The notes under the pieces were generated by a model. It did not search any database, was not told where the DNA came from, and worked only from the letters and a program-made list of their open reading frames with translations. A stretch of DNA of 48,709 bases from Minisyncoccia bacterium (GTDB lineage Bacteria > Patescibacteriota > Minisyncoccia > Phycocordibacterales > UBA918): NCBI GenBank assembly GCA_046598345.1, contig JBKJIT010000003.1:222549-271257 (forward strand). The letters are read 5' to 3'. How positions within the stretch are numbered: position 1 is the stretch's first letter; the number at the start of each line of letters is the position of its first letter. The position numbers and the translations under genes were made by a program. This document shows positions 4,340 through 37,065 of this stretch, one piece after another.

Positions 4340-4430
4340 CCCCAGCTACTTTGTTGTTTTCGTCATTCGAAACTTCATCGTAACAGTAGTACGTCTCAGT
4401 TTTTCATTCCTCAACGCCTCGTATCTGGGG
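4340..4430. repeat. Structured intergenic element, copy A (81-nt core 4346-4426)
   Basis: CTACTTTGT-4-TTCGTCATT-6-TTCATCGTA-7-TACGTCTCA-19-CTCGTATCT inside ccccag/ctgggg arms. Confidence 0.85.
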
Positions 4431-4448
4431 TTTACAATAAGTTCTCCA

Positions 4449-4496
4449 AATGAACTCAAGAAAATCCTGCATTAGCAGGATTTTCTTGAGTTCATT
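4449..4496. repeat. Perfect 22-bp inverted repeat (4-nt loop)
   Basis: aatgaactcaagaaaatcctgc-atta-gcaggattttcttgagttcatt. Confidence 0.9.
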
Positions 4497-4513
4497 CAGT
4501 ACACTCTACGTTT

Positions 4514-4522
4514 TGGTATACT
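4514..4522 (+). promoter_or_regulatory. Extended -10 box 7 nt before the rarA ATG (leaderless-type)
   Basis: TGG-TATACT-caaacta-ATG. Confidence 0.6.
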
Positions 4523-4529
4523 CAAACTA

Positions 4530-5696
4530 ATGGAACCACTCGCTTCAAAAATGAGGCCGCTAGCTCTTACTGACTTTATCGGGCAAGAACACCTTGTTGG
4601 TGAGGGGATGCCTCTCAATGTTGCGATTAGGGATAAGCATCTTTTTTCCTTTATTCTCTGGGGACCACCAGGCGTAGGGAAAACGACGCTGGCGCGCATC
4701 TACGCAAAAAGTGTCCATGCATCCTTTCATGAACTCTCAGCTGTCTCTGCAGGAAAAGACGATATTCGAAAGATCGTTGCTACACCCTCCGATCTTCCCG
4801 GGCAACCCAAAATTCTGTTCCTTGATGAGATTCATAGATTTAATAAGGCACAGCAGGATTTCCTCCTTCCGTATGTCGAGTCAGGTGCACTCACGCTCGT
4901 TGGTGCAACGACAGAAAACCCAAGCTTTGAGGTGATCGCGCCACTCCTTTCTCGTACACGCGTGTTCGTATTGAAAGAACTTACGCTCGAGGAAATGAAA
5001 GAAGTGATCAAGCGAAGTGCGAAGCGCGCGAATATACAAATACATGCAAAAGCAATCTCCTGGCTCGCAGAAGTGGGAAACGGAGATGCGAGACAGGCAC
5101 TCTCAATGCTCGAGGCTGTGCATGCGCTCTACGGAAACGTAACAGTGGAGAGTCTGGAGGAAACGCTCGAGAAGCGATTCCTCCGGTACGACAAGAAAGG
5201 TGAAGAGCACTACAACACCATTTCAGCATTCATTAAGAGCATGCGAGCATCGCAACCGGACGCAGCGCTCTATTACCTTGCGCGCATGATTAAGGCGGGC
5301 GAAGATCCTAAGTTTATTGCGAGACGCATGGTTATTTTTGCGAGCGAAGATATTGGACTTGCTCAACCCACTGCGCTTGTCGTTGCGAATGCTGTCTTTG
5401 ATGCCGTCGATCGCATCGGCCTGCCCGAAGCCCTCGTTAATCTAGGTCATGGGGTTACCTATCTTGCGCTTGCAAAGAAAGATCGGAGTGCCTACGACGC
5501 AACGATGCTCGCGATGAGTGATGTTGAGAAATACGGCAACCTACCAGTTCCACTACTCATACGTAATGCTCCAACAAAACTCATGAAAGAATTAGGGTAC
5601 CACAAAGGGTATGAACTCTACACGAAAGAAGAGCTCCTCCCAGAAAAACTGAAAGGAAAGAAATATTTTAAGAAGCCTAAAGAGGAGGGGAAATAG
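4530..5696 (+). CDS. rarA: Replication-associated recombination protein A (MgsA/RarA AAA+ ATPase)
   Basis: GPPGVGKTT Walker [54 protein letters not shown]. Confidence 0.96.
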
Positions 5697-6330
5697 GTTT
5701 TTCCTTTTTTCGTCGTTTCATATACACGAAGAGCAGGCCGAGGATTATGGTAAGGAGTGCAAGTCCCTGAATGATGGATTCGAGTGACGATGAACCTTCG
5801 ATAAGCGTTCCGAGGTACGCAGTTCCCATAAAACCAAAGTAGAGATAAAAAATATCACGGAAGATTGTGCCAATCATGGTACACACTATATAGAGCTTTA
5901 GCGGAACTTTAAGGAGCCCACACCCAATAGAGACCAGTGTGCTCGGTACAAAGGGAAGTGTGCGAAAGAGCGTGAGGAGAAAGTAATCACGGTATCCTCC
6001 TGTGAGGCGGGTTCTAAATTTCTCAATATCAGCATAGGTCACACCGAAAAATCCTCCAAATTTTCCCATAACAACTTCCTCCAGTTTCCCAGAAACAAAA
6101 TAAATGAAGAGGGCTCCGACTGTTTTTCCGAGCGCTGCAATAACAGAAAGTAACAGGAGGTCTGCAATCGTCATTCCTTGAAGAGAAGCAACAGTTCCTG
6201 CAATAATCATTACCGCGGGGGAGGGAATTGGAGCAATCACTTCTTCAACGAGCGACGCGACAAAGGAAAACAGTGGAAGGGGGAGTGTATCCGCATAGGA
6301 GAGAAGAATCTCCTCAAGGTGAGTGAACAT
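5677..6330 (-). CDS. DedA/VTT family membrane protein
   Basis: EEVIAPIPSPAVMIIAG...ALGKTVGA...FRTLPFVP pattern; start set at MFTHLEE, 6 nt after a TATACT box. Confidence 0.85.
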   Translation of the reverse strand: MFTHLEEILLSYADTLPLPLFSFVASLVEEVIAPIPSPAVMIIAGTVASLQGMTIADLLLLSVIAALGKTVGALFIYFVSGKLEEVVMGKFGGFFGVTYADIEKFRTRLTGGYRDYFLLTLFRTLPFVPSTLVSIGCGLLKVPLKLYIVCTMIGTIFRDIFYLYFGFMGTAYLGTLIEGSSSLESIIQGLALLTIILGLLFVYMKRRKKEKPISPPL

Positions 6331-6386
6331 GTCTCTAGTATATACACAGAAAGCCAAAAATGGGCATAATGATATACTCTATCTAT

Positions 6387-7586: not shown

Positions 7587-7619
7587 AGAAAAACACCAGG
7601 CTCCGCCTGGTGTTTTTCT
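7587..7619 (+). terminator. Intrinsic terminator
   Basis: agaaaaacaccaggc-tcc-gcctggtgtttttct. Confidence 0.8.
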
Positions 7620-7700: not shown

Positions 7701-9680
7701 ATGTTTAATCACCTCAAATTACTGAGCTTTACAAGTATCACCATGGTACTTGTCGCTTTTGTATATATTCAAATTTTACAGCCTTCATACGTTAGAGCCC
7801 AAAGTTCTGTTGAATTGGATGTTGAGATTCAAAAAAATGTTGCTGGACAACTTCCTCCAGGCTACGAAGAAACCCAGTTTGCATTTGTAGTGTCTGGTCC
7901 AGGATTCACCCAGGATGTTTATGTGACTCCCGATGGACCTAAATTCACAGCGACACTTCCATTGTCAGATGGAACATATACCATCACTGAGATTGGACCA
8001 GCTGGTTTTAATCCAGATGACTGGGAGGTGCAATGGAGTGGCGCATGTAAGCAGAGCGACTCAAATCAATTTGAGGCGACGTTTGTAGTTGCTCCAAATC
8101 ATAATAATGAGTTGGGAGATCAGCCGTGTAGAGCTAAAAATAAATGGCGTCCAGAAAAAGAAGATAATGGCGGTGGGGGTACTAGCACAGCAACACTCAA
8201 TGTGACGAAAGTGATTGTGGGTACCACAACGGTTCCTGCAAATGCCTTTTCATTCTCATACAGTGGCACAGATTCTGGAACTCACACGTTTGAAGCTGAT
8301 GGTACAAATATTCTCACACTCAACAAAGGGACCTATTCTGTGACTGAAAATCCTGCTCAGGGATACGTAACAACGTATAATAATTGCTCAAATATAAACC
8401 TTACATCAGGGGCTACATCAACGTGTGTTATTACGAACACCGCAACTTCAACTGGGAGTGGTGGAGGCGGTGGTACAGCGACAGGGACTCTTCTGGTTAC
8501 AAAAGAAATTGTTGGTACGACTACCGTTCCAGTAACCAATTTCGCATTCACCTATACGGGAGCACCAGGAAATATTAATTTTGAATCGGATGGGACGAAC
8601 ACACTGAAGCTCCCTGCGGGGACTTACTCGGTAACCGAATCGCCGCTTCGTCCTGGATATACTGTTTCCTATAACAATTGTTCCAGCATAACCATATTGG
8701 CAGGTGCTACAACCACGTGTGTCATAACGAACACGGCCACAACTTCGACTGGAGGAGGGGGTAACGGCACCGCAACTGGAACCCTACATGTAACAAAAGT
8801 GATTGTAGGAACAACAACTGTGCCTACTACGGCATTTTCCTTCTCATATAGTGGAACAAGCACAGGAGCTCATGCATTTGAGGCTGACGGAACTAATACT
8901 CTTGCACTTCCGGTTGGAACATACTCCATCACTGAAAATGCAGCTCCCGGATACCTAACAACATACCAAAACTGCTCCAATATATCCCTAACGTCTGGAG
9001 CTACAACTACCTGCACAATCACCAACACTGCAACCTTAGCGGGAGGCGGGGGTGCCGCAACGGGAACCTTACGTGTGTCAAAAGTTATTATGGGCACAAC
9101 TACTGTTTCTACCACTAACTTTTCCTTCACCTATACGGGAGGCGGAAACATAAGCTTTGAAGCCGATGGTACAAATGTCCTCCAGCTGCCTGTTGGTATC
9201 TATAGTGTGTCCGAGTCTTCTATTCCGGCGGGATACCTAGCTTTATACAACAATTGCTCAAACCTTGTAATTGCCGCGAATGCGACGACAACTTGTATTA
9301 TCACAAATACTGCTACCACTAGCGGAGGTTCTTCAACGACGGGAACTATTGTAGGTAATGTAGATGGTTCTTCAACCTCTACAGCGGGAACTATTAGCGG
9401 AGAAGTTACGGATGACGACGAAAATGATACTGGTGGAGGCGGGGGCGGTGGTGGACGACGATCGTCGGGCGGGGGAGGTGGCGATGACGACGATGATGAT
9501 GACGATAGTTCGGGAGGTGGTGGAGGCGGAGCAACTCCTGAAGTCCTTGGTGAAAGTACCAGTGTGACTCCATTAGGTGCTCCAAATACAGGAGGTGGTG
9601 GAACTTCACCTCAACAATTGCCTCAGATTCAAACCTTATTCGCTATCCTCTCCGGAAACAGGATACATATTCGGAAGTAA
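7701..9680 (+). CDS. Secreted surface protein 1: four CnaB/SpaA-like repeats, Gly/Asp-rich linker, APNTG sorting-like motif
   Basis: Signal or TM at the N-terminus; 4 repeats of L.V.K..GT.YS.TE...GY...Y.NC....C.ITN; C-terminal PEVLGESTSVTPLGAPNTGGGG. Confidence 0.85.
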   Translation: MFNHLKLLSFTSITMVLVAFVYIQILQPSYVRAQSSVELDVEIQKNVAGQLPPGYEETQFAFVVSGPGFTQDVYVTPDGPKFTATLPLSDGTYTITEIGPAGFNPDDWEVQWSGACKQSDSNQFEATFVVAPNHNNELGDQPCRAKNKWRPEKEDNGGGGTSTATLNVTKVIVGTTTVPANAFSFSYSGTDSGTHTFEADGTNILTLNKGTYSVTENPAQGYVTTYNNCSNINLTSGATSTCVITNTATSTGSGGGGGTATGTLLVTKEIVGTTTVPVTNFAFTYTGAPGNINFESDGTNTLKLPAGTYSVTESPLRPGYTVSYNNCSSITILAGATTTCVITNTATTSTGGGGNGTATGTLHVTKVIVGTTTVPTTAFSFSYSGTSTGAHAFEADGTNTLALPVGTYSITENAAPGYLTTYQNCSNISLTSGATTTCTITNTATLAGGGGAATGTLRVSKVIMGTTTVSTTNFSFTYTGGGNISFEADGTNVLQLPVGIYSVSESSIPAGYLALYNNCSNLVIAANATTTCIITNTATTSGGSSTTGTIVGNVDGSSTSTAGTISGEVTDDDENDTGGGGGGGGRRSSGGGGGDDDDDDDDSSGGGGGGATPEVLGESTSVTPLGAPNTGGGGTSPQQLPQIQTLFAILSGNRIHIRK

Positions 9681-9691
9681 GATAGGAGACT

Positions 9692-9742
9692 TGCATATAA
9701 CCAAAAAATCTCGCCTCGTGCGAGATTTTTTGGTTATATGCA
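9692..9742. repeat. Perfect 23-bp inverted repeat (5-nt loop), likely terminator
   Basis: tgcatataaccaaaaaatctcgc-ctcgt-gcgagattttttggttatatgca. Confidence 0.88.
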
Positions 9743-9763
9743 CACTTTTCGTCTCACTCTTCG

Positions 9764-9792
9764 TTGACTTCATCCTTAGTGAGCCGTAGTCT
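9764..9792 (+). promoter_or_regulatory. Sigma70-type promoter for the small Cys-rich ORF
   Basis: TTGACT-17 nt-TAGTCT. Confidence 0.6.
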
Positions 9793-9836
9793 GGAACTAG
9801 ATCGTCTTTTGTTTCTTTTTTCCAAGGAGCAACATC

Positions 9837-10028
9837 ATGACCGAGAAGGAAGTAAAGTGCACGGGCTGTCACAACACCCTCTGTATAGGAAGTCTCCAGC
9901 CTGTCATTGTTGAAGTAGCTGGGGTCAAAAAGCCTTTCTGTTCCTACGGGTGTGGTGGCCGCTTTCTCCTTATGCCCATTCAGACAGACTTGTTTGCAAC
10001 GCCGCAACAATTGCAACTGGCGATGTGA
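9837..10028 (+). CDS. Small Cys-rich protein, TRASH/FCS-like metal finger
   Basis: CTGC...FCSYGC; AGGAG RBS upstream, its own promoter, and a TTCG-loop hairpin with T tract at ~10045-10080. Confidence 0.65.
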   Translation: MTEKEVKCTGCHNTLCIGSLQPVIVEVAGVKKPFCSYGCGGRFLLMPIQTDLFATPQQLQLAM

Positions 10029-10398
10029 GGAAACTTGTCACCCATTCCCCGTTTCGACGGGGAATCGTTTTTTGATTTTTCTACAAAATCGCGAAGCAAC
10101 TCTTTATCTAAACCGTCAATATAATGAAGGGTAAATGAAGCCTGCCACTATACGTATATTTTAAGCCGTACTTTAAGATGCGAAACGAGCCGCCAATTTT
10201 TACTTGCGTAAATAAAAAAGATGTGGTATAAGCATTGTAGTTTGTATTGATGTTCCAGAGTTGTCGTCTACTATATATAGTAGTAAGCTGTTTTCATGAA
10301 GAAGCTCATTCGGCATGAAAGAGCGACTGAGGAGGTTATTAAGATTTAAAGGTAAAATTAACTTATTTATGCAAAGTATTACTAGTGGGTTCACGCCA

Positions 10399-12987
10399 AT
10401 GCGCAAAATTGCAGCGCTTGTGGCGATTTTTGCGTTGGTCTTTTCACCACTCGCAGGCGTTCAGTTTGCAAGTGCAGCAGCTGGAGAAGTCAATACTGTT
10501 ACGGGCTCTTGTGGAGCGCCAGTAAACGAGAATCAGTACGAAGTAGGGCAGGCCGTTCTACTTAAAGGGAAGGATTTCCTTCCGAACACTCAGTATAGCT
10601 GGGACATTTCTCCAGCAGCTGGTGGTCCCAATGCTGTAGCAATAGCCAGTGGTTTTGTGACCACTGATGCAAATGGTGATTTTTGCTTCACTGCGATCCC
10701 ATCATTGCCAGAAGGTTCAGAGGATAACGATCCTTTTAAGGCAACAGTGGGTGGTGCAAAATCAGATAATTTTAGTGTAAACGAAAGTGTCAATTCTAAT
10801 GGCACTATCGTTGTTGTAAAAGAATTAGTAAATGAACCAGAAGGTGTTACCGCTGATGATTTCAGCTTCACTGTAAATGGTGGTGATGCAGTTCAATTTG
10901 ATCTTGATGGGTCAAATAATTCAATTCAAAACCTCAATGATGGTCCATTTACAGTTGTAGAAGTTGAGGAAGATGGTGATGGTTACGCTACTTCTTATGA
11001 AGGTTGTTCATCTATTGCACTTACAACAGCAGGTGCAACATGCACTATCACGAACACTTACGAAGCAGCTCCAGTTTGTGAAGACCCAAATGCAAACAAT
11101 GAGAATGAGCCGCTTCCATGTACATATGATCCAACCCAAGCTGTAATTACAGTCAATAAAATAGTAGTAAATCCAGATACTTCAGTAACTCCAAACTATT
11201 TCTCTTTCACCGTAGATGGAGGATTTGGGAATATTTTCGAGGCTGACGGGTCTAATCAAGTAGTTGTAACAACTGCAGGAGTACACAATATCGTTGAAGT
11301 TACTGCGACAGATTACACAACAACATACGATGGATGTTCTCCAACCGTTGTTCTTGGGCAGTCTTACACTTGCACAATAACAAATACGTTTAATCCAGGT
11401 TCTATTACAATCGATAAGGTTGTAACAGGAGCAGGTGCTAATCAGGATCTTGATTTCACATTCACAGGATTCTTTAGCCCATTCTTCTTGCTTTCAGGAA
11501 GCGATGCACCGAAAGTATACACAGGACTTACTTCTGGCGAATACAGCATTACAGAAGTTGATGCATCAGATTACACACTCACCGGAGTGGAATGTAAGGT
11601 TGGTGAAGTTGTAAAAACTGATCTCAATGCAGACGCAGATACTATTCGAATCGCTCTTGGAGCTGGCGAAAATGCAACATGCACATTCACTAACGCAAAG
11701 GATGTGGTTGACGACACTACAATTACGATCAATAAGGTTACGAATGTAGCGAGTGGCGATATGTTCGACTTCTACCTCGATGGAGGAGTGGCAACCTCAG
11801 CGTCACTTATGGGAGGTCAGTCTTCTGGCGCAATGGTAGTTACTCCAGGTTCACACAACCTTGTGGAGGGAGGAGAAACAGGATGGACACTCAATCAAGA
11901 AACTTCTTCTTGTGTAAACGAATCACAAAATGAAGTTGGAGGATTTGATGGCAACCCATATTACCTCACGCTTACAGCTGGAGATGATATTGTGTGTACA
12001 TTTAATAACACACGAGACACGGGTGTACTCCAGGTAAAGAAAGTTGTCCTCGGTTCAGAAGCTGACGAAAGCGCATTTAGCTTCCAAGTAGATGGAGGAA
12101 CGGCTGCTGCTTTTGAGTCTGATGGAGAAAACAACATGACTGTTGTTACCGGCAACTACACAGTAACAGAAGTTGCAAATGCTAATTACGCAACTGTTTA
12201 CGACAACTGTACTGATGTTGCGGTAACGGAAGGAGCGACAACTACATGTACAATCACAAACCGATTCATTGATACGAGTGATGATTCACTCTCATGTTCA
12301 ATCAATGCAAGCGACGTGTCAGTATCAGAAAATCAGGAAGTTACTCTTACATGGGAATCTAACAATGCAACTGATGTAGACATTAGTGGCATCGGAAACA
12401 ATCTTGATCTCGATGGTTCAACATCGACAACAGTGGCTAACGACACTACCTACACACTCACTGCTTCACGCATGGGTGATAACGAAGAACTTGAATCAAT
12501 TCAGTGCCAGGTCACTGTTGACGTTCAGTCAGGCGGTGGAGGAGGCGGAGGTGGAAGTTCACCTTCACCACGTTGTGATGCATTTGAACTCGATGGTGAT
12601 GATCTCTCATGGGAGACTCGAAACGGGTACGACATGAACATTACGCGAAATGGTGATGAGATTTTCTCAACCACAAATGACGATGTAACTGACGAAGGAA
12701 TCTTCGAAACTGCATCTGATGAGGGGGATGTGTTCCTTCTCACGGTAAATCGTGGAAGCAAGGATGATACTTGCCGACTTGAAGTTGATGAAAATGGAGG
12801 CGGAGGCGGAAGCAGCACACCAACCCCAGAGGTATTGGGTGAGGCTACGAGCGTTATTCCACAAGGTGCTCCAAACACGGGCGCTGGAGGATCAGCATCT
12901 TCACTCCCATCTGCGTTCGCACTCCTTGGAATGGTTATGGCTCTCATGACCATTCGAGGAACACGACGTGATGATGAAAAGGCTTAA
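10399..12987 (+). CDS. Secreted surface protein 2: five CnaB/SpaA-like repeats, Ig/PKD-like domain, APNTG sorting signal + hydrophobic tail
   Basis: Signal peptide MRKIAALVAIFALVFSPLAGVQFASA; repeats with K...E...C...C.(I/F)(T/N)N; C-terminal PEVLGEATSVIPQGAPNTGAGG...AFALLGMVMALMTIRGTRR. Confidence 0.87.
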   Translation: MRKIAALVAIFALVFSPLAGVQFASAAAGEVNTVTGSCGAPVNENQYEVGQAVLLKGKDFLPNTQYSWDISPAAGGPNAVAIASGFVTTDANGDFCFTAIPSLPEGSEDNDPFKATVGGAKSDNFSVNESVNSNGTIVVVKELVNEPEGVTADDFSFTVNGGDAVQFDLDGSNNSIQNLNDGPFTVVEVEEDGDGYATSYEGCSSIALTTAGATCTITNTYEAAPVCEDPNANNENEPLPCTYDPTQAVITVNKIVVNPDTSVTPNYFSFTVDGGFGNIFEADGSNQVVVTTAGVHNIVEVTATDYTTTYDGCSPTVVLGQSYTCTITNTFNPGSITIDKVVTGAGANQDLDFTFTGFFSPFFLLSGSDAPKVYTGLTSGEYSITEVDASDYTLTGVECKVGEVVKTDLNADADTIRIALGAGENATCTFTNAKDVVDDTTITINKVTNVASGDMFDFYLDGGVATSASLMGGQSSGAMVVTPGSHNLVEGGETGWTLNQETSSCVNESQNEVGGFDGNPYYLTLTAGDDIVCTFNNTRDTGVLQVKKVVLGSEADESAFSFQVDGGTAAAFESDGENNMTVVTGNYTVTEVANANYATVYDNCTDVAVTEGATTTCTITNRFIDTSDDSLSCSINASDVSVSENQEVTLTWESNNATDVDISGIGNNLDLDGSTSTTVANDTTYTLTASRMGDNEELESIQCQVTVDVQSGGGGGGGGSSPSPRCDAFELDGDDLSWETRNGYDMNITRNGDEIFSTTNDDVTDEGIFETASDEGDVFLLTVNRGSKDDTCRLEVDENGGGGGSSTPTPEVLGEATSVIPQGAPNTGAGGSASSLPSAFALLGMVMALMTIRGTRRDDEKA

Positions 12988-13633
12988 CCTTACATTTCTT
13001 AATACAACGAAACGCCACTACCTTCGGGTAGCGGCGTTTGTTGTATTTGGAATCTCACTCGGTGTACTCTTGTACCCAAAAGTATACCCTTATTTCAGCG
13101 ATCGAAGTGTTGTGGTAAATAATCCATCTGCCCTTGAAAGTACTTCGACTCCAGACGGACTTTCGAGGTCAGCCCCAGTACGGCTTCGAATTCCTACGCT
13201 TAATCTCGATACCACCTTTGAGGCGCCCCTTGGCCTCAATGCCGATCTCACGGTTTCAGTGCCTAAGTCCTATGAGAAAGTTGGGTGGTATAAATTTGGT
13301 CCAACACCAGGAGAAGTAGGTCCCGCGGTGGTTCTGGGGCATGTAGATTCCGTAGATGGCGCAGCGGTGTTTTATGAACTAGGCCAACTCACTCCTGGCG
13401 ATCAAATCTTTGTTCAGCGTCAAGATGGCACTGAAGCGGTATTTGAAGTGGATTTTCTTGAACGATACCCACAGGAGGAATTCCCCTCAGGGCTCGTCTA
13501 TGGTGAAGTTCCGTACTCCGCGCTTCGGCTTGTTACGTGCACTGGCTCATTCGATAAAGGTGAGCAGCGGTACAGCCACAACTTGGTGGTGTACGCAAAG
13601 TTGGTAGAGCAAACTCAAGCTACGAATATTTAA
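12971..13633 (+). CDS. Class F sortase
   Basis: N-terminal TM, PVRLRIP, VGWY..GPTPGEVGPAVVLGHVD, VFYELGQL, LRLVTCTG, YSHNLVVYA; overlaps the stop of surface protein 2. Confidence 0.93.
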   Translation: MMKRLNLTFLNTTKRHYLRVAAFVVFGISLGVLLYPKVYPYFSDRSVVVNNPSALESTSTPDGLSRSAPVRLRIPTLNLDTTFEAPLGLNADLTVSVPKSYEKVGWYKFGPTPGEVGPAVVLGHVDSVDGAAVFYELGQLTPGDQIFVQRQDGTEAVFEVDFLERYPQEEFPSGLVYGEVPYSALRLVTCTGSFDKGEQRYSHNLVVYAKLVEQTQATNI

Positions 13634-14501
13634 ATTTTGCAGCAATAATTTCTGCAATTCGAGTGAATACCTTAAATTCGTGAACTGACTCAAAGCCTTT
13701 CACTTGAGGAGATTTATTAACTTCAAGTACGACAGGTCCAGTATCGGTATGAATCATATCTACCCCGGCAAGATCAATGCTGCACGCCTTTGCTGCAGCA
13801 AGAGCAATTTCCAATTCACCCTGAGTAAGTGTTGTTTTCGCAGGGATTGCTCCTTGACCAATGTTATTTAAATATCCACTCGTACGAGTTCGTTTGATGC
13901 TTCCTAGGACTTCCCCATAGGCAACGAGAGTGCGTGTATCGAATGTGTTTTCAATAAAAGGCTGAATGAGAGCCAATTGGCGGGGAAGTTTACGTTCTAC
14001 AACTTGGTCAAGTTCTTCCAGTGAGGTAAGCAGATGTACATTTATTCCTTTACTTCCATCTGTTTTGAATATGAGTGGAAACGTTACCTGCGAAGCTATA
14101 TATTCACGGTTGGCATGGTACGACTCCTCTCGGAATACCATGGTTGGAGGAATTCGTATTCCGGCAAGCGCTAGCAGCATCATTTGTGAAATCTTTTCGG
14201 CACTATGGGGATAGGAACGATTGATAGGGTCATTGGTGGGAATCCTATTCTGATCGAAATATTCATAAAGCATGCCACAAAAATGTGCATCAGTAGCTCG
14301 AAGGCGGGTAAAGACGTGGGTGCCATGTAAATCAATCTGAGTGTTTTTATTAAAAAAGGTTATGTTGCCATTTTCCTGTATATGAAGGAGCATTTCTTTT
14401 GTTTTGTAGTAGGCTATCGAAGCTTTTTGAATACCTGACGCAAAAGCGCCTCGGGTTTTGTTTCCCGCATTCAATAGAATATATGTAGGTTGCTTTGACA
14501 T
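13620..14501 (-). CDS. RimK-family ATP-grasp ligase
   Basis: FPLIFKTDGSKG, IQPFI, DTRTLV, GYLNNIGQG, AGVDMI, VLEVNKSPQVKGFE. Confidence 0.85.
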   Translation of the reverse strand: MSKQPTYILLNAGNKTRGAFASGIQKASIAYYKTKEMLLHIQENGNITFFNKNTQIDLHGTHVFTRLRATDAHFCGMLYEYFDQNRIPTNDPINRSYPHSAEKISQMMLLALAGIRIPPTMVFREESYHANREYIASQVTFPLIFKTDGSKGINVHLLTSLEELDQVVERKLPRQLALIQPFIENTFDTRTLVAYGEVLGSIKRTRTSGYLNNIGQGAIPAKTTLTQGELEIALAAAKACSIDLAGVDMIHTDTGPVVLEVNKSPQVKGFESVHEFKVFTRIAEIIAAKFKYS

Positions 14502-14662: not shown

Positions 14663-15940
14663 ATGAAGACAGAACAAAAAAACATCATTGCATATGTCAT
14701 GAATTTACCTTCGGATGCTATTCCAAGCATTCGTCGATATGGGCGTAGCATTGATAAAAAATTCAAGGTAATGCTCATTTGGGATACAAATGTCAAAACG
14801 GAAAAAGATAAAGATGCATATCAGGGATTAGATATTTTTCTCCCCATTGATCTCTCAAAGCCAAATGCTATCGCTGAAGCCCTTGCACCGTATCAGTCGA
14901 AACTCTGTGCCATTTCATGTCGCACAGAATCATACATGGCTCGCTTTATTCAAGTGATTCCCCATGTGCCGTATTTGCGAACACCTACGACAGAATCGCT
15001 TAAGTGGGCTTCAGACAAACTTGAGATGCGCCGCCGCTTTGCGCTCCTTGCACCAAAATTTTCTCCCAAGTATGCAGTCGTAAAAGAAAATACATCATCG
15101 GAACGAAGGCGTGTCATAGAAAAGATTAGATTCCCGCTCATTGTGAAGCCTACTAACCTCGCTCAAAGTCTTCTGGTATCAATTTGCTATCACGAAGAAG
15201 AATTTAAAAAGGTACTCACCAACGCTTTTATAAAAATTCAAAAAATATACGATGAAAATGGACGTATTGAGGCTCCAAAAATTATTGCTGAGGAGTTTAT
15301 GGATGGTGATATGTATTCGGTTGATGCATATGTAAATTCACGCGGCAGTATATATTTTTGTCCAATGGTTAAGGTGGTGACGGGAAAAATGATTGGTCAT
15401 GATGATTTTTTTAATTATCTCCATATGTCCCCGACAGCGCTTAAAAAATCTTCAATTGAAAAAGCTCATACTGCAGCAGAGGCAGGTATTCATGCTCTTG
15501 GGCTTAGAAACACGACTGCGCATGTCGAACTTATGAAAGTTGATGATGAGTGGAAGCTCATTGAGATTGGTCCGCGTATAGGAGGATTTAGACACAAGCT
15601 TCACGAACTTTCCTGCGATATCGATCACTCACTCAATGATATTCTTATCCGGTTGCCGAAGCGTCCAATTCTTCCCAAGAAATGCAAAGGGTATGCTGCA
15701 ACCCTCAAGTGGTATCCAAAAAAAGAGGGTATCATCACAAAACTTAAGGGTATTAAAAAGTGCCGCGATCTTAAATCGTTTGTTGATATTAACGTAGTGA
15801 AAAAAGTGGGTGATCGCTGTCGATTTGCCAAAAATGGAGGAAAGGCGGTATTTACAGTCACACTATTCAATGTTGAACGCTCGAAGCTTCTTGCGGATAT
15901 ACGACGAGTTGAGCAACTGATTAACATTGAAATAGCTTAA
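14663..15940 (+). CDS. ATP-grasp enzyme (L-amino-acid-ligase-like)
   Basis: DKLEMRRRF, FPLIVKP, IIAEEFMDG..YSVD, AHVEL, KLIEIGPRIGG. Confidence 0.87.
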   Translation: MKTEQKNIIAYVMNLPSDAIPSIRRYGRSIDKKFKVMLIWDTNVKTEKDKDAYQGLDIFLPIDLSKPNAIAEALAPYQSKLCAISCRTESYMARFIQVIPHVPYLRTPTTESLKWASDKLEMRRRFALLAPKFSPKYAVVKENTSSERRRVIEKIRFPLIVKPTNLAQSLLVSICYHEEEFKKVLTNAFIKIQKIYDENGRIEAPKIIAEEFMDGDMYSVDAYVNSRGSIYFCPMVKVVTGKMIGHDDFFNYLHMSPTALKKSSIEKAHTAAEAGIHALGLRNTTAHVELMKVDDEWKLIEIGPRIGGFRHKLHELSCDIDHSLNDILIRLPKRPILPKKCKGYAATLKWYPKKEGIITKLKGIKKCRDLKSFVDINVVKKVGDRCRFAKNGGKAVFTVTLFNVERSKLLADIRRVEQLINIEIA

Positions 15941-16060
15941 TCCTTCTCAAAACGTCTGCCTACTTCGGCAGCTTCGTCATAAAGAAATTCATCGTAGCAT
16001 CAGTACGCCTCATTTCTTTATGACTCGCTTACTCGTATCCAGAGCGTTTTGAGTAGGATT
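15939..16060. repeat. Structured intergenic element, copy B (81-nt core 15960-16040)
   Basis: CTACTTCGG-4-TTCGTCATA-6-TTCATCGTA-7-TACGCCTCA-19-CTCGTATCC; inner 13-bp perfect stem gtcataaagaaat/atttctttatgac; outer arms aatcct.ctcaaaacg / cgttttgag.aggatt. Confidence 0.88.
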
Positions 16061-16149
16061 AATTAGTTTTAGAATGCCTGCTGAGACTTGCGATGTAATC
16101 GCAGAATGACGTACTCATTAGGTACTTTAGGGTGATATACTGATGATAT

Positions 16150-17890: not shown

Positions 17891-18325
17891 ATGGAAAAAA
17901 ATTCTGAACACGATGATCTGCATTTCTATCCAGCCGATTTGATTGAACCAACGAAGCGTTCGGTGTATTCGGAAACAGAACACCAGATAGAGGTGAACAC
18001 ATATCTCCGCTCTCAAGAAGAGTTGGAAATCGAAATTCAACGGATATGGTTACCGCTTCTTTTTTGCCTCATCCCACTCACGCTGGCTTGGATCCTGGTG
18101 TACCTCTGTACGAGCTTCCACATGGGAGACCCTGTGTCCTATAAGCTCATTGCAACATCGCTCTGCGTGGCCACCATGTTCAATCAGTGGATCATACTTA
18201 CGTGGTGGGGGCACACCCTCAATAAGATCCTTGCTGTGTGGTGGTCACTGCTTGGAATAGGAATCCTTACGGAAACACTCCCGCCGGGAATGGTGTGGAA
18301 CTTCCTGAGGTTGTTGTTTGCCTGA
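17891..18325 (+). CDS. Hypothetical multi-pass membrane protein
   Basis: Acidic N-terminus then about 3 hydrophobic helices; followed by a terminator. Confidence 0.65.
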   Translation: MEKNSEHDDLHFYPADLIEPTKRSVYSETEHQIEVNTYLRSQEELEIEIQRIWLPLLFCLIPLTLAWILVYLCTSFHMGDPVSYKLIATSLCVATMFNQWIILTWWGHTLNKILAVWWSLLGIGILTETLPPGMVWNFLRLLFA

Positions 18326-18358
18326 AAGCCCGGGACGCGTACGCGCCCCGGGCTTTTT
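18325..18358 (+). terminator. Intrinsic terminator
   Basis: aaagcccggg-acgcgtacgcgc-cccgggcttttt. Confidence 0.8.
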
Positions 18359-23785: not shown

Positions 23786-23800
23786 ATTTTTGTACGATTC

Positions 23801-23832
23801 AAAACACCTGCTCCCGTAGGGGCAGGTGTTTT
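23801..23832 (+). terminator. Intrinsic terminator
   Basis: aaaacacctgctccc-gta-ggggcaggtgtttt. Confidence 0.78.
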
Positions 23833-23846
23833 GTTACAATACGTAT

Positions 23847-25840: not shown

Positions 25841-25914
25841 ATTGTCGAGACAAGAGAGGGTGCCCTGGGGTACAAGGTGAATTGTCGAGACAAGAGAGGG
25901 TGCCCTGGGGTACA
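25841..25914 (+). repeat. 34-bp perfect direct repeat, period 40
   Basis: attgtcgagacaagagagggtgccctggggtaca at 25841-25874 and 25881-25914. Confidence 0.95.
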
Positions 25915-25922: not shown

Positions 25923-26612
25923 ATGGAAAAACAGCGTGTCGCCTTTTTTGATATTGATGGAACTATATTCCGCTCCAGTCTCCTTGTTGAGTTAGTGAAT
26001 AGACTTGTAGCTGATGGAGTCTTTCCCGAGACGACACGCTCTCTATATCAGTCTGCGCATGAGGCGTGGCAGAATCGAGAGGGTACATATGAAACGTACA
26101 TACAAGGAGTGATTAAAGCCTTTGTGGAAAATCTGCGAGGGGTGCACTATGGTGCCTTGGCTGACATCGGACGCATGGTTGTGCATGAGCAAAGCAAGCA
26201 CGTGTATCGCTACACGCGAGATTTAGTTTCAAATCTCAAAGCAGAAAATTACTATCTCGTTGCAATTTCTCAATCACCCAAATTTATTCTTGATGATTTT
26301 TGTGACCACTATGGTTTTGATAAAGTGTATGGGCGCGTTTATGAAATTGGTCCCCTAGATCGGTTTACTGGTGAAGTCGCAGAACTTGAACTTATCCAAG
26401 ACAAGGCAAAGATTGTACGCCGTGTATTTGAGCGCGGGGATTATAGTGAGGATGACTCCATGGGAGTGGGGGATACTGAAGGAGACATCCCACTCCTCGA
26501 ATCAGTGGCGATGCCTATTTGTTTTAATCCCAACATGCAGCTGTATACGTATGCGAAAGGAAAGAAGTGGCCGGTTATCATAGAACGAAAAGATGTCGTC
26601 TACACGTTGTAG
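25923..26612 (+). CDS. HAD-IB family hydrolase (SerB-like)
   Basis: AFFDIDGTIFR motif I, ISQSP, K, GVGDTEGDIPLL motif IV. Confidence 0.92.
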   Translation: MEKQRVAFFDIDGTIFRSSLLVELVNRLVADGVFPETTRSLYQSAHEAWQNREGTYETYIQGVIKAFVENLRGVHYGALADIGRMVVHEQSKHVYRYTRDLVSNLKAENYYLVAISQSPKFILDDFCDHYGFDKVYGRVYEIGPLDRFTGEVAELELIQDKAKIVRRVFERGDYSEDDSMGVGDTEGDIPLLESVAMPICFNPNMQLYTYAKGKKWPVIIERKDVVYTL

Positions 26613-26728
26613 TCTTTAAAACACTCATCTGCTTCGTTAATTTCATCCTTCAAATACTCACCGTATAGATATACGACTCGTATTCTCACGACTCATTGCC
26701 TCGCATCTAAGCACTTTAAAGACTACAA
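26607..26728. repeat. Structured intergenic element, copy C (80-nt core 26629-26708)
   Basis: CTGCTTCGT-4-TTCATCCTT-6-CTCACCGTA-6-TACGACTCG-19-CTCGCATCT; 14-bp outer arms ttgtagtctttaaa/tttaaagactacaa include the HAD stop codon. Confidence 0.88.
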
Positions 26729-28797: not shown

Positions 28798-28834
28798 GAG
28801 ACCCCCGAAAAAGCATTGCTTTTTCGGGGGTCTC
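28798..28834 (-). terminator. Long hairpin after rnj
   Basis: gagacccccgaaaaagca-t-tgctttttcgggggtctc. Confidence 0.75.
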
Positions 28835-33572: not shown

Positions 33573-35210
33573 ATGGCAAAACAAATAATGTATGGAGAGG
33601 ATGTAAAGAAGCGACTGAAGGCTGGCGTTGATGCTGTCGCGAATGTGGTGAAGGTAACGATCGGTCCTCGCGGTCGAAACGTGATCATTGATAAAGGCTA
33701 TGGCGGACCAACAATCACGAACGATGGTGTTTCAATCGCGAAGGAAATAACCCTTAAGGACAAGTTTGAAAACATGGGGGCGGAGATCATTAAGGAGGTT
33801 GCGAGTAAGACGAATGACCTCGCGGGAGACGGAACGACTACAGCAACCATTTTGACGCAGGCGCTCGTCGATGAAGGATTCCGACAGACAACGATGGGAG
33901 TAAACCCACTCGCAGTACGTATTGGTATGGAGCACGCAGCAAAGGATGTGGTTGCGGCGCTCAAGGAGATGGCTATTAAGATTAGTAGCACGGAAGAAAT
34001 TAAGCAGGTTGCAACTATTTCTGCGGAAAATGCTGAGATAGGCGCCAAAATTGCTGAGACGATTGAAAAGGTAGGGAAGGATGGCGTGGTAACTGTTGAG
34101 GAATCACAGTCGTTTGGAATTGAAACAGAATTTACAGAGGGTATGGAATTTGATCGTGGGTACGTTTCTCCGTACATGATCACAAATCCTGAGCGCATGG
34201 AAGCAGAGTATAAAAATGCGCTTATTCTCGTGACTGACAGCAAGATTTCTTCTGCGAAAGAAATTCTCCCAGTACTTGAAAAGGTGGCTCAGAGCGGAAA
34301 GAAAGAACTTGTCATTATTGCAGACGACATTGAAGGTGAGGCGCTTACGACATTTGTGCTCAACAAACTACGTGGAGGGTTCTCTGTGCTTGCTGTGAAA
34401 GCACCAGGGTATGGCGATAGAAAAAAAGAAATGCTCCAGGACATTGCCATCACGACCGGTGGGCAGTTTGTTTCAAGTGAGGTTGGACTAAAACTCGAAA
34501 CAACAGAACTGAGTCACCTAGGAAAAGCATCACGTGTGGTGTCAACGAAGGATAAGACAGTTATTGTAGGTGGCGAAGGTGAAAAGAGCGCCATTGATGC
34601 GCGTGTGCAGTCACTTCGTGCGCAGCTTGAAACGACTGATTCCAAATTTGATAAAGAAAAACTTGAAGAGCGAATTGCGAAGCTCTCAGGTGGTGTAGCT
34701 GTTCTCCGCGTGGGGGCAGCAACTGAAACTGAAATGAAGTACCTGAAATTGAAGATTGAAGATGCGGTCAATGCGACGAAGGCAGCGATTGAGGAAGGTA
34801 TCGTTTCAGGAGGAGGAACCTCACTCGTAAAAGCAGCACGCATCGTTGAAGGAAATGTACGGAAAGACCTCGGCCGCGAAGAGCTCATTGGGTACCGCAT
34901 TGTACTTAAAGCGCTTGAAGAACCACTGAAGCAGATTGCGCAGAACGGCGGAAAGGATGATGGGGCAGTGATTGTGTCGAAGATTAAAGAGGCGGGAGGA
35001 AATGCGGGATACGATGCAGCAGAAGGCATTATTATCGATGACATGATTAAGGCGGGTATTATTGACCCAGTAAAGGTAGAGCGGGCGGCAGTTGAGCACG
35101 CGGTTTCAGCAGCCGGCATTCTCCTCACGAGCGAGGCAGCGATTGCTGATGAGCCTGAGCCGGAGAAGGCTCAGATGCCGGATATGGGCATGGGAGGCAT
35201 GGGAATGTAA
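33573..35210 (+). CDS. groEL: Chaperonin GroEL
   Basis: TIGPRGRNV, ITNDGVSIAKEI, AGDGTTTAT, GMEFDRGY, ERIAKLSGGVAV, GGM tail. Confidence 0.99.
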   Translation: MAKQIMYGEDVKKRLKAGVDAVANVVKVTIGPRGRNVIIDKGYGGPTITNDGVSIAKEITLKDKFENMGAEIIKEVASKTNDLAGDGTTTATILTQALVDEGFRQTTMGVNPLAVRIGMEHAAKDVVAALKEMAIKISSTEEIKQVATISAENAEIGAKIAETIEKVGKDGVVTVEESQSFGIETEFTEGMEFDRGYVSPYMITNPERMEAEYKNALILVTDSKISSAKEILPVLEKVAQSGKKELVIIADDIEGEALTTFVLNKLRGGFSVLAVKAPGYGDRKKEMLQDIAITTGGQFVSSEVGLKLETTELSHLGKASRVVSTKDKTVIVGGEGEKSAIDARVQSLRAQLETTDSKFDKEKLEERIAKLSGGVAVLRVGAATETEMKYLKLKIEDAVNATKAAIEEGIVSGGGTSLVKAARIVEGNVRKDLGREELIGYRIVLKALEEPLKQIAQNGGKDDGAVIVSKIKEAGGNAGYDAAEGIIIDDMIKAGIIDPVKVERAAVEHAVSAAGILLTSEAAIADEPEPEKAQMPDMGMGGMGM

Positions 35211-35329
35211 ATCGGCAAAATTACTGAATCTACGTTGTCACACTTCGAAAAAAGACCCTCATCGTACGATGTGTACGCCTTGGGTCTTTTTTCTTGTGCT
35301 CCTAGTATCTTCAGCAATTTTGCCGATTT
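35209..35329. repeat. Structured intergenic element, copy F (81-nt core 35230-35310)
   Basis: CTACGTTGT-4-CTTCGAAAA-6-CTCATCGTA-7-TACGCCTTG-19-CTAGTATCT; 14-bp outer arms aaatcggcaaaatt/aattttgccgattt; 12-bp inner stem gaaaaaagaccc/gggtcttttttc. Confidence 0.85.
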
Positions 35330-35409
35330 CATGTAAGTGAGTTTTGACTTTTGCTCCTGCTTCGGCTACGCTCACAACGTATTCTGTTCTTCAACACTAA
35401 GGAGAGATT

Positions 35410-35847
35410 ATGGACTTAGAACTCCGTGTAGATCAATCCAGCTATTGCCCCCTTATCCGGATTTGTAGGAATGGAAAGGAAAAAGTCGACTGGATTGGAT
35501 GTTTTGCCGGTTTGGATTCAGTGCTTGTCGAAGGTTTTGCTTGCGAAGCGGTAGTGGATGTGGGAGGACCCAAACTGCAATTTGCCAATCGCAATTACAT
35601 ACTGCGTTTGAATAGGGAGAGTATTAAGTACGTGATCTATCCCTATTTTTTGTGGAGGCGGCGGGGCGACCCCTTCAAAAGTGATCCGTCAAAAATCCCA
35701 CTTATCGCGCGTCATGAATATCAGGATGGCACTATGATGGATGATCCGGAACTGCAAAGTGTTCCGCGCACCATTCTATTAATTACGCCCGTCATGCGAG
35801 GGAATCAGCCAACAATGGCACTCGAATTCCGGCCGATAAGCGAGTGA
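35410..35847 (+). CDS. Orphan hypothetical protein
   Basis: 145-aa ORF with TTGACT-17-TACGCT promoter (35344-35372), AAGGAG RBS and its own terminator. Confidence 0.6.
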   Translation: MDLELRVDQSSYCPLIRICRNGKEKVDWIGCFAGLDSVLVEGFACEAVVDVGGPKLQFANRNYILRLNRESIKYVIYPYFLWRRRGDPFKSDPSKIPLIARHEYQDGTMMDDPELQSVPRTILLITPVMRGNQPTMALEFRPISE

Positions 35848-35856
35848 ATTCATTTC

Positions 35857-35883
35857 AAAACGCCTCTCAAGGGCGTTTTTTTT
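35857..35883 (+). terminator. Intrinsic terminator
   Basis: aaaacgcctc-tca-agggcgtttttttt. Confidence 0.75.
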
Positions 35884-35957
35884 GCATACTACACCACATC
35901 TTTCCATCCCCTTCATGAATGCTATACTAGTAGCACTTATTACGTATAAACAATTCT

Positions 35958-36545
35958 ATGACACTTACATACATTCTGATCGCGGTTGTTGTTGCTCTCG
36001 TACTCTGGGTAATTTTTGCTTACAACAACTTTGTTCGTCTCGTACAGCGCACCAAGGAAGCGTGGGCTGATATTGATGTACAGCTAAAGCGCCGCTACGA
36101 TCTTATTCCAAACCTTGTTGAAGCAGTGAAGGGCTATGCTTCGCACGAGCGAGCGACCTTTGACGCGGTAACCGAAGCGCGGGCAAAGGCTACGCAGGTG
36201 CATATCGATCCTACCAACATCACTCCGGAGCAAATTGCTGCGATGGATGGTGCACAAGCAAACCTTACGCAATCTCTTGGGAAACTTCTTGCAGTTGCAG
36301 AGGCGTATCCGGACCTTAAGGCGAATACCAATTTCCTCGAGCTTCAGCGTGAACTCTCTGATACTGAAAATAAGATTCAAGCAGCACGACGCTTTTACAA
36401 CGGCAACGTGCGTGATTTGAAGATTGCACTCCAGTCGTTTCCATCAAACCTCATTGGAAACATGTTTAACTTCAAGGAAGAGCAGTTCTATGAACTTAGT
36501 GAAGCAGACGCTGCAGCGAAAGAGCCAGTGAAAGTAAGTTTTTAA
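35958..36545 (+). CDS. lemA: LemA family protein
   Basis: AWADIDVQLKRRYDLIPNLV, AEAYPDLKANTNF, ENKIQAARRFYN. Confidence 0.96.
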   Translation: MTLTYILIAVVVALVLWVIFAYNNFVRLVQRTKEAWADIDVQLKRRYDLIPNLVEAVKGYASHERATFDAVTEARAKATQVHIDPTNITPEQIAAMDGAQANLTQSLGKLLAVAEAYPDLKANTNFLELQRELSDTENKIQAARRFYNGNVRDLKIALQSFPSNLIGNMFNFKEEQFYELSEADAAAKEPVKVSF

Positions 36546-36571
36546 TCCGCTTTAATCTCTCCGTACATTTT

Positions 36572-36943
36572 ATGGAAAAAATTTATTACAACAAGCTCTG
36601 TCGAGACAAGGTACCGGACATCATCCGAGAAAAAGGTTTTGAGTGTGAAGTTAGAGAAACGGATCACGACGAGTATAAGCGAGAAATTATTCGGAAGGTT
36701 TTTGAAGAGGCGAGTGGAGTTTCAAACCACGACGGTAAAGAACACCTCCTTAAGCAGCTTGCAGATTTGGTTATTACGCTTGACGCGGTGACTGCTGAGT
36801 ACGGCATTACTGACGATGAGCTCGATGCGGCTGTAGAAAAAAGCTATGAAGAAAAAGGGGGATACGAAGATCGTCTTTATCTTTCATGGTCCTCAGATAC
36901 GGATTATAGCTCGCATGACCAAGGACATGGTTTTGATGACTAA
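36572..36943 (+). CDS. MazG-like nucleoside-triphosphate pyrophosphohydrolase family protein
   Basis: YNKLCRDKVPDII...EY...KVFEE...LAD...EEKGGY pattern. Confidence 0.75.
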   Translation: MEKIYYNKLCRDKVPDIIREKGFECEVRETDHDEYKREIIRKVFEEASGVSNHDGKEHLLKQLADLVITLDAVTAEYGITDDELDAAVEKSYEEKGGYEDRLYLSWSSDTDYSSHDQGHGFDD

Positions 36944-37065
36944 AACTCATTTCAAAACCGCTATCTACTTTGTCACCATCGTCCTTCAAACACTCATCAT
37001 ATGAGTATATGCCTCATGTTCTCAGTCCTTGGTTCCTCGTATCTAGGGAGTTTTGAAATGAGTTT
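36943..37065. repeat. Structured intergenic element, copy D (80-nt core 36965-37044)
   Basis: CTACTTTGT-4-ATCGTCCTT-6-CTCATCATA-6-TATGCCTCA-19-CTCGTATCT; 16-bp perfect outer arms aaactcatttcaaaac/gttttgaaatgagttt. Confidence 0.9.

Follow-up and report, generated by a model that had tools for sequence, protein, structure and literature searches.

A palindromic repeat beginning at stop codons in a Minisyncoccia bacterium belongs to an apparently undescribed family shared by several phyla

Directly behind the stop codons of several unrelated genes of a Minisyncoccia bacterium (Patescibacteriota) stand short sequences with a common layout, and the question raised by this locus is what they are and how they came to lie there. 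The window, by which we mean the whole stretch of 48,709 nucleotides (nt) analyzed here (contig JBKJIT010000003.1, positions 222,549 to 271,257), holds six copies of this element. [quoted passage not shown] This reading is carried by the structure of the element and the apparent selection on the strand antisense to the abutted gene, by its multicopy dispersal next to unrelated genes, by its presence and absence at equivalent sites of relatives, by near-identical and nested copies, and by its occurrence in several phyla.

An earlier note on this DNA had described five copies of an 80-81 nt unit with constant spacing of conserved blocks. A repeat search recovered one five-member family in the window, with 61-71% identity to the reference copy; a degenerate pattern of the layout matched four of these copies, compared to 0.00 matches expected (100 dinucleotide-preserving shuffles); and a covariance model of the five sequences (R1) scored the five copies at 96-121 bits and nothing in the rest of the window above about 20 bits. 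All five lie where the note had placed them, and the spacing is indeed constant, at 20 nt, 6-7 nt and 21 nt. A sixth, divergent copy is marginal with R1 (12.9 bits, E = 0.45) and clear with a model of 128 sequences (R2; 37 bits, E = 2e-6). All six lie on the same strand:

c1, 4326-4445, minus strand: core 4346-4426; abuts the TAG stop (4323-4325) of open reading frame (ORF) 3771-4325; R1 102 bits, R2 91.5 bits (at 4324-4445).
c2, 15937-16062, minus strand: core 15960-16040; follows the ATP-grasp gene 14663-15940; R1 121.4 bits; inverted repeat found.
c6, 19612-19740, minus strand: the divergent copy; begins on the final base of the TAA that ends the GH1 gene (18377-19612), next gene from 19753; inverted repeat found.
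c3, 26607-26728, minus strand: core 26629-26708; follows the HAD gene, next gene (HhH-GPD) from 26741; R1 108.3 bits; inverted repeat found.
c4, 35209-35329, minus strand: core 35230-35310; begins inside the groEL TAA stop (35208-35210); R2 99.8 bits; inverted repeats found.
c5, 36941-37067, minus strand: core 36965-37044; its first three bases are the TAA stop (36941-36943) of a 123-aa ORF; R1 116.7 bits; inverted repeat found.

The 80-81 nt first taken for the unit proved to be its core, the inner part of an imperfect hairpin of 120-129 nt in which the flanks of the core are complementary and form an outer stem of 20-21 bp. TTCGTC(A/C)TT, put forward as a family motif, falls in a variable, covarying helix, and the description had been made on the plus strand, the better-folding and selected strand being the minus. 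The adjacency to plus-strand stop codons holds, and the stop proved to belong to the hairpin or to border it: the outer stem starts at or within the TAA or TAG stop of the upstream plus-strand gene (for c1 to c5, stops end at 4325, 15940, 26612, 35210 and 36943, and hairpins start at 4326, 15937, 26607, 35209 and 36941). Thus the outer stem of c2 (TTAATCCTTCTCAAAACG / CGTTTTGAGTAGGATTAA) takes in the ATP-grasp TAA stop (15938-15940), and that of c3 (TTGTAGTCTTTAAA / TTTAAAGACTACAA) spans the last sense codon of the HAD gene, TTG, and its TAG stop (26610-26612). The outer stem of c1 is the most degenerate among the six, and c6 retains the basal module (UUC GAGGAG ... GACAAAGAA) and a long outer stem, its apical part being different. 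The next start codon follows three of the window copies after 12-20 nt. The genes abutted in the window (groEL, HAD, ATP-grasp, GH1) are unrelated in function; as for the labels given earlier, the 'MazG-like' ORF 36572-36943 has no Pfam match and the 'stress protein' 3771-4325 only a sub-threshold match to DUF1269.

The family extends well beyond this genome. A degenerate-pattern scan with one genome per species gave at least 118 loci outside the window (these and further loci compared with them carry L-numbers below), which by record label, among the matches listed, are distributed as follows:

Patescibacteria (Paceibacterota, Saccharibacteria, Kaiser-, Zambryski-, Nomura-, Yanofskybacteria and others): 59 loci.
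Treponema: 19 loci, four of them from T. vincentii OMZ 806.
Smithella, 'delta proteobacterium' and Myxococcales: 14 loci.
Rokubacteria and Methylomirabilia: 3 loci.
Firmicutes (Sporomusa aerivorans, Anaerospora hongkongensis, UBA7523; including Negativicutes): 3 loci.
An Acidimicrobiales bin: 1 locus.
Unclassified: 19 loci.

Covariance models added about 35 copies inside the same loci, and more than 150 copies outside the window share the geometry and covary. The element is therefore not specific to Patescibacteria, and the likeness to repeats of Desulfobacterota that the earlier note mentions is borne out by the Smithella and 'delta proteobacterium' genomes, which carry the same element. Copy density is about one per 8 kb in the window and reaches five in 8 kb in Smithella (L109). 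Viral contigs gave 0 matches. The locus labelled Acidimicrobiales (L006) has three to four copies with a G+C content of 35-46%; it looks patescibacterial rather than actinobacterial, and the contig may be mis-binned.

A comparison with Rfam, which had been proposed as a check of novelty, gave nothing on the element: Rfam 15 at gathering threshold returned RNase P and one tRNA only for the whole window, and E-value scans of the element-bearing loci and of c2 alone gave only noise on it (E 0.25-8.5), the weak matches to C/D-box snoRNA and miRNA models included. The results of a tRNA/tmRNA scan were unrelated to the element, and neither a keyword search nor a search with consensus 12-mers found a description in the literature. 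The cross-phylum family is real, strongly structured and widespread, and apparently undescribed.

The fold is considerably more stable on the minus strand, here called the AGAU strand, which is antisense to the abutted gene. For minus and plus strands, respectively, folding energies (kcal/mol) are -22.4 and -19.2 for c1, -52.7 and -46.8 for c2 (z = -9), -43.6 and -21.2 for c3, -60.8 and -49.4 for c4 (z = -13) and -45.0 and -32.5 for c5; c6 has a minimum free energy of -52.2 (z = -6.8). The AGAU strand is likewise the stabler one in 115 of 118 distinct non-window copies (mean minimum free energy -55.5 vs. -41.5 kcal/mol with RNA parameters), and in 111 of the 118 with DNA parameters. The mismatches point the same way: in the modelled pairs of 128 copies G.U outnumbers A.C (268 vs. 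76) and G.A outnumbers C.U (224 vs. 13), ratios far from 1:1, and the outer stems alone have 219 G.U and 52 A.C. Known deamination biases linked to transcription and replication would drive the G.U to A.C ratio the other way, so we read the asymmetry as a sign that selection acts on this antisense strand in its single-stranded form.

Read on the AGAU strand from the outside inwards, the consensus begins with the outer stem of 20-21 bp (the peak length, 20 or 21, in 51 of 117 copies), followed by a symmetric AGAU/AGAU loop, a candidate for tandem G.A pairs, and a covarying 3-bp helix, U-N-C/G-N'-A. Next comes an asymmetric loop, (U/G)AGGC / AACAA(C/A), whose first and last variable bases covary, G with A and U with C, then two variable helices, a GAG/UGA loop and, at the apex, a conserved CGUA(C)/(G)UACG helix with a closing loop of 5-8 nt. 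In the 128-copy alignment 89.8% of cells are paired, compared to 60.3% in shuffled and 34.3-38.7% in slid controls, and the covariation score, for which the earlier note had proposed a test, is 0.672 against 0.164 shuffled (0 of 500 shuffles reach it) and 0.055-0.116 slid, with compensatory changes on both sides in 32 of 35 base pairs; since the alignment was fitted to the model, these figures are somewhat inflated. The covariation is also visible in the raw sequences, where AGAUGC goes with GCAGAU, AGAUAC with GUAGAU and AGAUUC with GAAGAU. The core is shared between phyla, while the arms differ from phylum to phylum; in Patescibacteria, the window included, each arm is copy-specific over its outer 9-10 nt and partly conserved only over its inner 11 nt or so.

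The relation to stop codons holds outside the window as well. In 89 of 114 cases (P = 1e-9) the gene next to the element on its 3' side is encoded on the other strand, an orientation bias of 4:1. Between the end of that gene's stop and the core lie 16-22 nt, or 8-9 nt in a subgroup of patescibacterial copies with TAAAAT in the arm, which places the stop in or at the base of the outer stem; distances to the 5'-side gene are broad, with no tight spacing. The abutted stops are TAA in 56 cases, TAG in 29 and TGA in 4, compared to 48, 30 and 21% in long ORFs of the same loci (P = 7e-6). YTA and its mirror TAR peak at offsets 16-22 in both arms, where TCA is rare, so that the ends of the unit read TA-R...Y-TA. 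Genes hosting a copy in other genomes include ftsZ, mreB, tuf, gyrB, rplU, greA, ychF, RNR and infC.

A role as intrinsic terminator was considered and rejected, since the position profile shows no T-run or T enrichment past the hairpin on either strand; only c4 has, on the plus strand, an inner helix (GAAAAAAGACCC...GGGTCTTTTTTC, 35247-35293) with A-tract, GC stem and T-run that resembles an intrinsic terminator for groEL. The window also has perfect hairpins of 15-23 bp with flanking A/T tracts at other gene ends (947-982, 2148-2181, 3261-3308, 4449-4496, 7587-7619, 9692-9742, 18325-18356, 23800-23833, 28798-28834 and 47738-47773), among them a 22-bp hairpin at 4449-4496, separate from c1 and directly after it. 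These are probably the ordinary, possibly bidirectional, terminators of this genome, and the stop-codon repeat is therefore not its general terminator.

Evidence for movement comes from syntenic loci. Four patescibacterial relatives with 85-86% identical GroEL were compared (L119, L120, L121 and L122), and in three of these (L119, L120 and L122) no copy was found in the syntenic DNA, 16-22 kb per locus and about 55 kb in total. At the empty site corresponding to c3, the spacer between the HAD and HhH-GPD genes is 3 nt in these relatives, L119 among them, and at that corresponding to c5, between the 123-aa ORF and DUF2207, it is 5 nt; the C-termini of the upstream proteins are unchanged at both. 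Insertion into the loop of a pre-existing terminator is ruled out for c3 and c5, these spacers having no hairpin. After groEL, where the window has c4, the relatives have ordinary terminators with a GC hairpin and T-run. The fourth relative, L121, has an orthologous c5 (13657-13778) whose outer stem is changed at every position and yet fully paired; the two copies represent the same insertion, as both have the unusual CAUAU/AUAUG apex.

In Treponema the spacer between ftsZ and xerC is 8 nt and empty in L131 and L132. In T. vincentii OMZ 806 it holds an antisense element directly at the ftsZ TAG, in CP009227 that copy again, within which a TD-2 motif is nested, in CP051147 a sense-oriented copy, and in L123-126 a different palindromic family that also starts with TAA and ends with TTA. 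Two T. vincentii copies, L025 and L042, are near-identical although their loci are 0.5 Mb apart. The empty syntenic sites, the near-identical copies and the nested repeats mark the element as mobile, or recently so: it has moved, recently in Treponema and long ago in the patescibacterium of the window. The view of the earlier note that the element is a structure and not a set of decayed IS (insertion sequence) ends is upheld as regards the structure, with its high pairing and covariation, but to set it apart from anything IS-like was too strong given these same three observations.

The second palindromic family in Treponema is unrelated to the element. It occurs at L123 2785-2925, in L125 and at L129 2785-2925, and in reverse orientation in L025 and L127; its core (GCAGAATAATTGAGG...CCTCAATTATTCTGC) is about 93% identical, its arms differ by compensatory changes, it begins at the ftsZ stop TAA and ends with TTA, and it has no Rfam match. 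The Rfam motifs TD-2 and TD-1 are found near the element at L127 2819-2915 (TD-2 nested in a disrupted copy), L021 595-868 and L115 98-191. The intergenic hot spots of Treponema are mosaics of several hairpin repeat families.

The enzyme behind such movement was sought near the copies. As the earlier note had stated, no cognate enzyme is encoded in the window (Pfam search of all ORFs for transposases, recombinases, HUH enzymes and reverse transcriptases), and no such family recurs near the copies in 118 flanks of 8 kb, where all-against-all clustering of 1,893 ORF segments yielded housekeeping families only, what looked like a DnaK cluster being an artefact of single linkage. XerC/D-like genes near four of the loci were rejected as the cognate enzyme, being 0.3-1.4 kb away and inconsistently placed, and the genes between inverted copy pairs are rpmI-rplT, a membrane protein and a metallo-hydrolase, not transposase candidates. 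GC skew is positive over the whole window, which makes the plus strand the probable leading strand, for which the selected minus strand would be the template.

We propose that a trans-acting enzyme copies or moves the element, recognizing a folded single strand of DNA or RNA. Recognition would rely on the conserved purine-rich loops and not on terminal inverted-repeat sequence, since conservation across phyla resides in the loops, the arms being specific to a lineage or a copy; this combination of conserved loops and free arms, the inverse of that in classical MITEs, suggests together with the strand asymmetry that the copying agent reads a folded single strand. The element would land on a TA dinucleotide, and insertion into the TA of TAA or TAG would restore the stop without altering the protein. 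That would account for the start of the hairpin at the stop codon, for the avoidance of TGA and for the tolerance of the element in compact genomes, and it is consistent with the TA-R...Y-TA ends and the intact C-termini of host proteins. The orientation bias may reflect either strand-specific insertion or selection against the much stabler AGAU fold (by 14 kcal/mol) in intercistronic mRNA. After insertion, templated fold-back correction would keep the arms complementary and selection would keep the loops open. Such correction is suggested by the arms changing fully while staying paired, as between c5 and L121, and by the outermost bases of c3, CTACAA, which complement the HAD gene's own TTG-TAG. 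It would make covariation a weaker proof of RNA function, while loops that persist open still require selection.

Several points weigh against this proposal. The mobilizing activity is purely inferred, with no enzyme in the window and none recurring in the flanks; the folded strand, as probable template of the leading strand, is the opposite of that predicted for single-strand transposition of the IS200/IS605 type; and covariation in a palindrome can come from fold-back correction, so that alone it is no proof of a functional fold. As TA is self-complementary, a TA target duplication is not separable from two extra pairs of the stem, and a direct TAA...TAA is seen at c5 only. The patescibacterial copies are old, to judge by their 61-71% identity, and a c5 fold kept in L121 while all bases of its outer stem changed looks more like constraint in place than like a decaying selfish element.

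This last point leads to the rival that survives best, although we consider it doubtful: that the transcribed AGAU strand is a host-functional structured RNA, an insulator, processing or protein-binding site protecting the 3' end of the abutted gene, with mobility being only the means of its spread. Its transcription might, for example, be divergent or antisense, starting in the promoter region downstream, or it might proceed from a convergent gene or belong to a longer transcript. A non-Watson-Crick spectrum of G.U and then G.A, together with a strand asymmetry of 14 kcal/mol, is typical of functional RNAs; the loops keep their sequence from phylum to phylum where the stems covary, the fold is retained in orthologous copies, genes such as gyrB, tuf, ftsZ, mreB, rplU, greA and ychF each carry a copy in different genomes, and one copy per 8 kb is a sizeable share of a streamlined genome. 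In Sporomusa aerivorans (NZ_CP156926.1; L041 527-5937) a sense copy ends 17 nt before the 23S rRNA, and in Treponema a subfamily (A) is mostly in sense orientation, upstream of genes; these contexts suggest that the AGAU strand is transcribed in some cases. The order of that Sporomusa rRNA operon is itself unusual: 16S, tRNA, tRNA, 5S, the element in sense, 23S. However, no -10-like peak stands at a fixed distance upstream of the hairpin on the AGAU strand (112 copies), which also led us to reject a dedicated small-RNA promoter, and the lack of a T-run on either strand speaks against termination as the function. Close relatives do without the element at the same sites, and its host genes are functionally unrelated. 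A host-functional RNA is compatible with a mobile origin.

Three further ideas on the RNA itself were rejected. A minus-strand ORF of 10 codons (AUG...UAG), present in c1, c2 and c4, is interrupted by in-frame stops in c3 and c5, and the stems covary. The apical GAGCCGUAC...GUACGGUGA resembles the lower helix in domain V of group II introns, and the rod a hinged hairpin ribozyme; both likenesses are treated as coincidence, as the Rfam models of the group II intron and the hairpin ribozyme gave no match.

The boldest reading compatible with the data, which we regard as unlikely, takes the core as a cross-phylum rod module of about 83 nt that has gone unrecognized, with three loops of the tandem-G.A type and one asymmetric loop. 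It might serve a novel enzyme system, one homing to stop codons on a folded single strand, as substrate or guide, or else be an RNA active in its own right, through processing or self-cleavage. In that case the several hundred copies to be expected in a small genome would represent the footprint of this module rather than a conventional transposase-driven MITE.

It is improbable that the hairpins are REP (repetitive extragenic palindrome) doublets moved by a RAYT, a Y1 HUH transposase of which each genome would encode a single copy at another place. The extragenic site just 3' of genes, the long hairpins, the recognition of one strand, the vertical persistence with occasional duplication and the BIME-like mosaics with other repeats in Treponema would all suit such a system, and GTAG does occur in some copies. 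Yet GTAG is here one state of a covarying helix (GUAG, GCAG and GAAG paired with AUAC, AUGC and AUUC), not a fixed tag, and the halves have no internal REP palindrome of 20-40 nt. No Y1_Tnp gene was found in the 48.7-kb window or recurring in the 118 flanks, and REPIN/RAYT systems are, as far as is known, lineage-specific, whereas the core of the element spans phyla.

Very improbable, and already largely refuted, is an integron-type attC site or another tyrosine-recombinase site acting on the folded bottom strand. The position right after a stop codon, the folding strand antisense to the ORF, the conserved geometry with variable sequence and the central unpaired AGAU/AGAU bubble recall attC; several of the host taxa are known to carry integrons, and a XerC/D-like gene lies near four loci. 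Against this, the stem ends lack RYYYAAC/GTTRRRY, the arm profile showing only an A4/T4 tract and no AAC/GTT at fixed positions; the copies stand 1.7-11.6 kb apart among housekeeping genes such as groEL and not in cassette arrays; no integrase is found in the window; the core is strongly conserved in primary sequence, unlike attC; and the XerC/D-like genes lie 0.3-1.4 kb away and are inconsistently placed. Chance similarity or decayed ends of a conventional IS, for which nothing speaks but the low identity among the window copies (61-71%), can be dismissed in view of 0 pattern matches expected by chance, covariance-model scores of 96-121 bits and more than 150 copies in other genomes with the same geometry and covariation.

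Some other loci of the window deserve mention. The 3' half of tRNA-Ser(GGA) (42390-42475) is repeated exactly over 51 nt some 300 nt downstream, and partly once more (42577-42627 and 42697-42747), and an 88-nt direct repeat, 90% identical (42739-42826 and 44764-44851), brackets about 2 kb of ORFs without Pfam match (43048-43785 and 44015-44674); these repeats look like att-site scars of one or two small integrated elements, with no integrase seen. An exact 34-nt direct repeat with 40-nt spacing (25841-25874 and 25881-25914) lies just upstream of the HAD gene (25923). Two large repeat proteins with a SpaA/prealbumin fold, encoded at 7701-9680 (a stretch that has internal repeats of 294 nt) and at 10315-12987, precede a sortase (12968-13633) and make the region 7701-13633 a predicted pilus- or surface-fibre-type locus in a patescibacterium. 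The class A RNase P RNA (47372-47745) scores 108.7 bits against a gathering score of 100 and, with several helices non-canonical or missing, appears reduced or divergent.

The genomes of Patescibacteria rank among the smallest of bacteria and among those most densely packed with genes, and still about 1.5% of the window is taken up by this one repeat family, which is common to lineages as distant as Patescibacteria, Spirochaetota and Desulfobacterota-like ones and has an unusual, precise relation to TAA and TAG stops. If selfish, it points to a mobilization mechanism that reads a folded single strand and moves between phyla; if it serves the host, the 3' ends of genes carry a widespread element that annotation has missed. 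It also confuses start-codon calling: the gene caller used for the window puts the DUF2207 start inside c5 (37001), and the database call in L121 (13723) likewise falls inside the repeat, the homologous start probably being ATG 37088, or ATG 37058 in the right arm of c5 behind GGGAG, by comparison with L119. The family provides a ready marker for the comparative genomics of uncultured lineages, and cultivable hosts (Treponema vincentii, Sporomusa aerivorans and Anaerospora hongkongensis) make it experimentally tractable.

How the element stands to known systems was assessed by the defining feature of each class. In being small (120-129 bp), non-coding, multicopy (6 copies) and polymorphic for insertion (empty sites in L119, L120 and L122 and in L131 and L132) it resembles MITEs, but its arms are variable, with no conserved terminal repeats matching a parent IS, and no parent IS is present in the window or flanks. 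Its ends read TAR...YTA, in which a target-site duplication and an extension of the stem are inseparable. GTAG/CGTC at the foot of a 20-40 nt palindrome, as in REPs, was not found, GUAG alternating with GCAG and GAAG; nor were the R boxes of attC in the position profile, arrays with intI, or an integrase in the window. Single-strand elements of the IS200/IS605 type (PATEs) have distinct subterminal hairpins at left and right, a fixed target tetra- or pentanucleotide 5' of the left end and their active strand on the lagging-strand template; here a single hairpin spans the whole unit, no TnpA was seen, and the folded strand of the window would, to judge by GC skew, be the leading-strand template. 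The element is therefore filed under none of the classical MITEs, REPs, attC sites and intrinsic terminators.

ERIC/IRU of enterobacteria and RUP/BOX of pneumococcus are imperfect palindromes of 107-127 bp in transcribed intergenic regions, and RUP targets TA (PMC2229807). They share with the element palindrome size, intergenic setting and, for RUP, the TA target; they differ in being lineage-restricted, and the arms of RUP match IS630-Spn1, whereas no parent IS was found for the element in the window or flanks. TD-1 (RF03155) and TD-2 (RF03162) are likewise multicopy covarying hairpins in Treponema intergenic regions and adjoin the element (L021, L115) or are nested in it (L127), but their sequences and models are different, and the element itself has no TD-1 or TD-2 score. 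According to Weinberg et al. (2007), who left it undecided whether the motifs act as functional RNAs, they were found only in Treponema denticola (PMC1950547).

With attC the element shares the folded bottom strand, a geometry kept above the sequence of the stem and the start at the stop codon of an ORF, the cassette ORF in attC; in contrast, it has no R/L box consensus, no cassette arrays and no integrase in the window, and its loop sequences are highly conserved. To REPs and REPINs it is linked by extragenic hairpins just 3' of genes, one-strand reading, a long-lived and mostly vertical history and mosaics with other repeats, and it is set apart by having neither the fixed GTAG/CGTC tag nor the REP doublet substructure, by the missing RAYT in window and flanks, and by one core being found in genomes of Patescibacteria, Spirochaetota, Negativicutes and Desulfobacterota-like and Methylomirabilota-like lineages.

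To our knowledge no transposase has been identified for Correia elements either. These elements (NEMIS/CREE) measure about 100-155 bp, with long terminal inverted repeats, a whole-unit hairpin and insertion at TA; they are gene-adjacent and co-transcribed, and their RNA hairpin is a substrate of RNase III (in part PMC2229807). Size, whole-unit hairpin, gene-adjacent site and, as far as the inferred target goes, TA insertion are common to both. Correia elements are confined to Neisseria and have conserved terminal repeats, whereas the element described here has loops conserved across phyla, variable arms, a strongly strand-asymmetric fold and a hairpin that starts at the stop codon, with no sequence similarity between the two. 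Correia/NEMIS is the closest known system in behaviour, REP/REPIN-RAYT in logic and attC in geometry, with TD-1 and TD-2 being its neighbours in Treponema.

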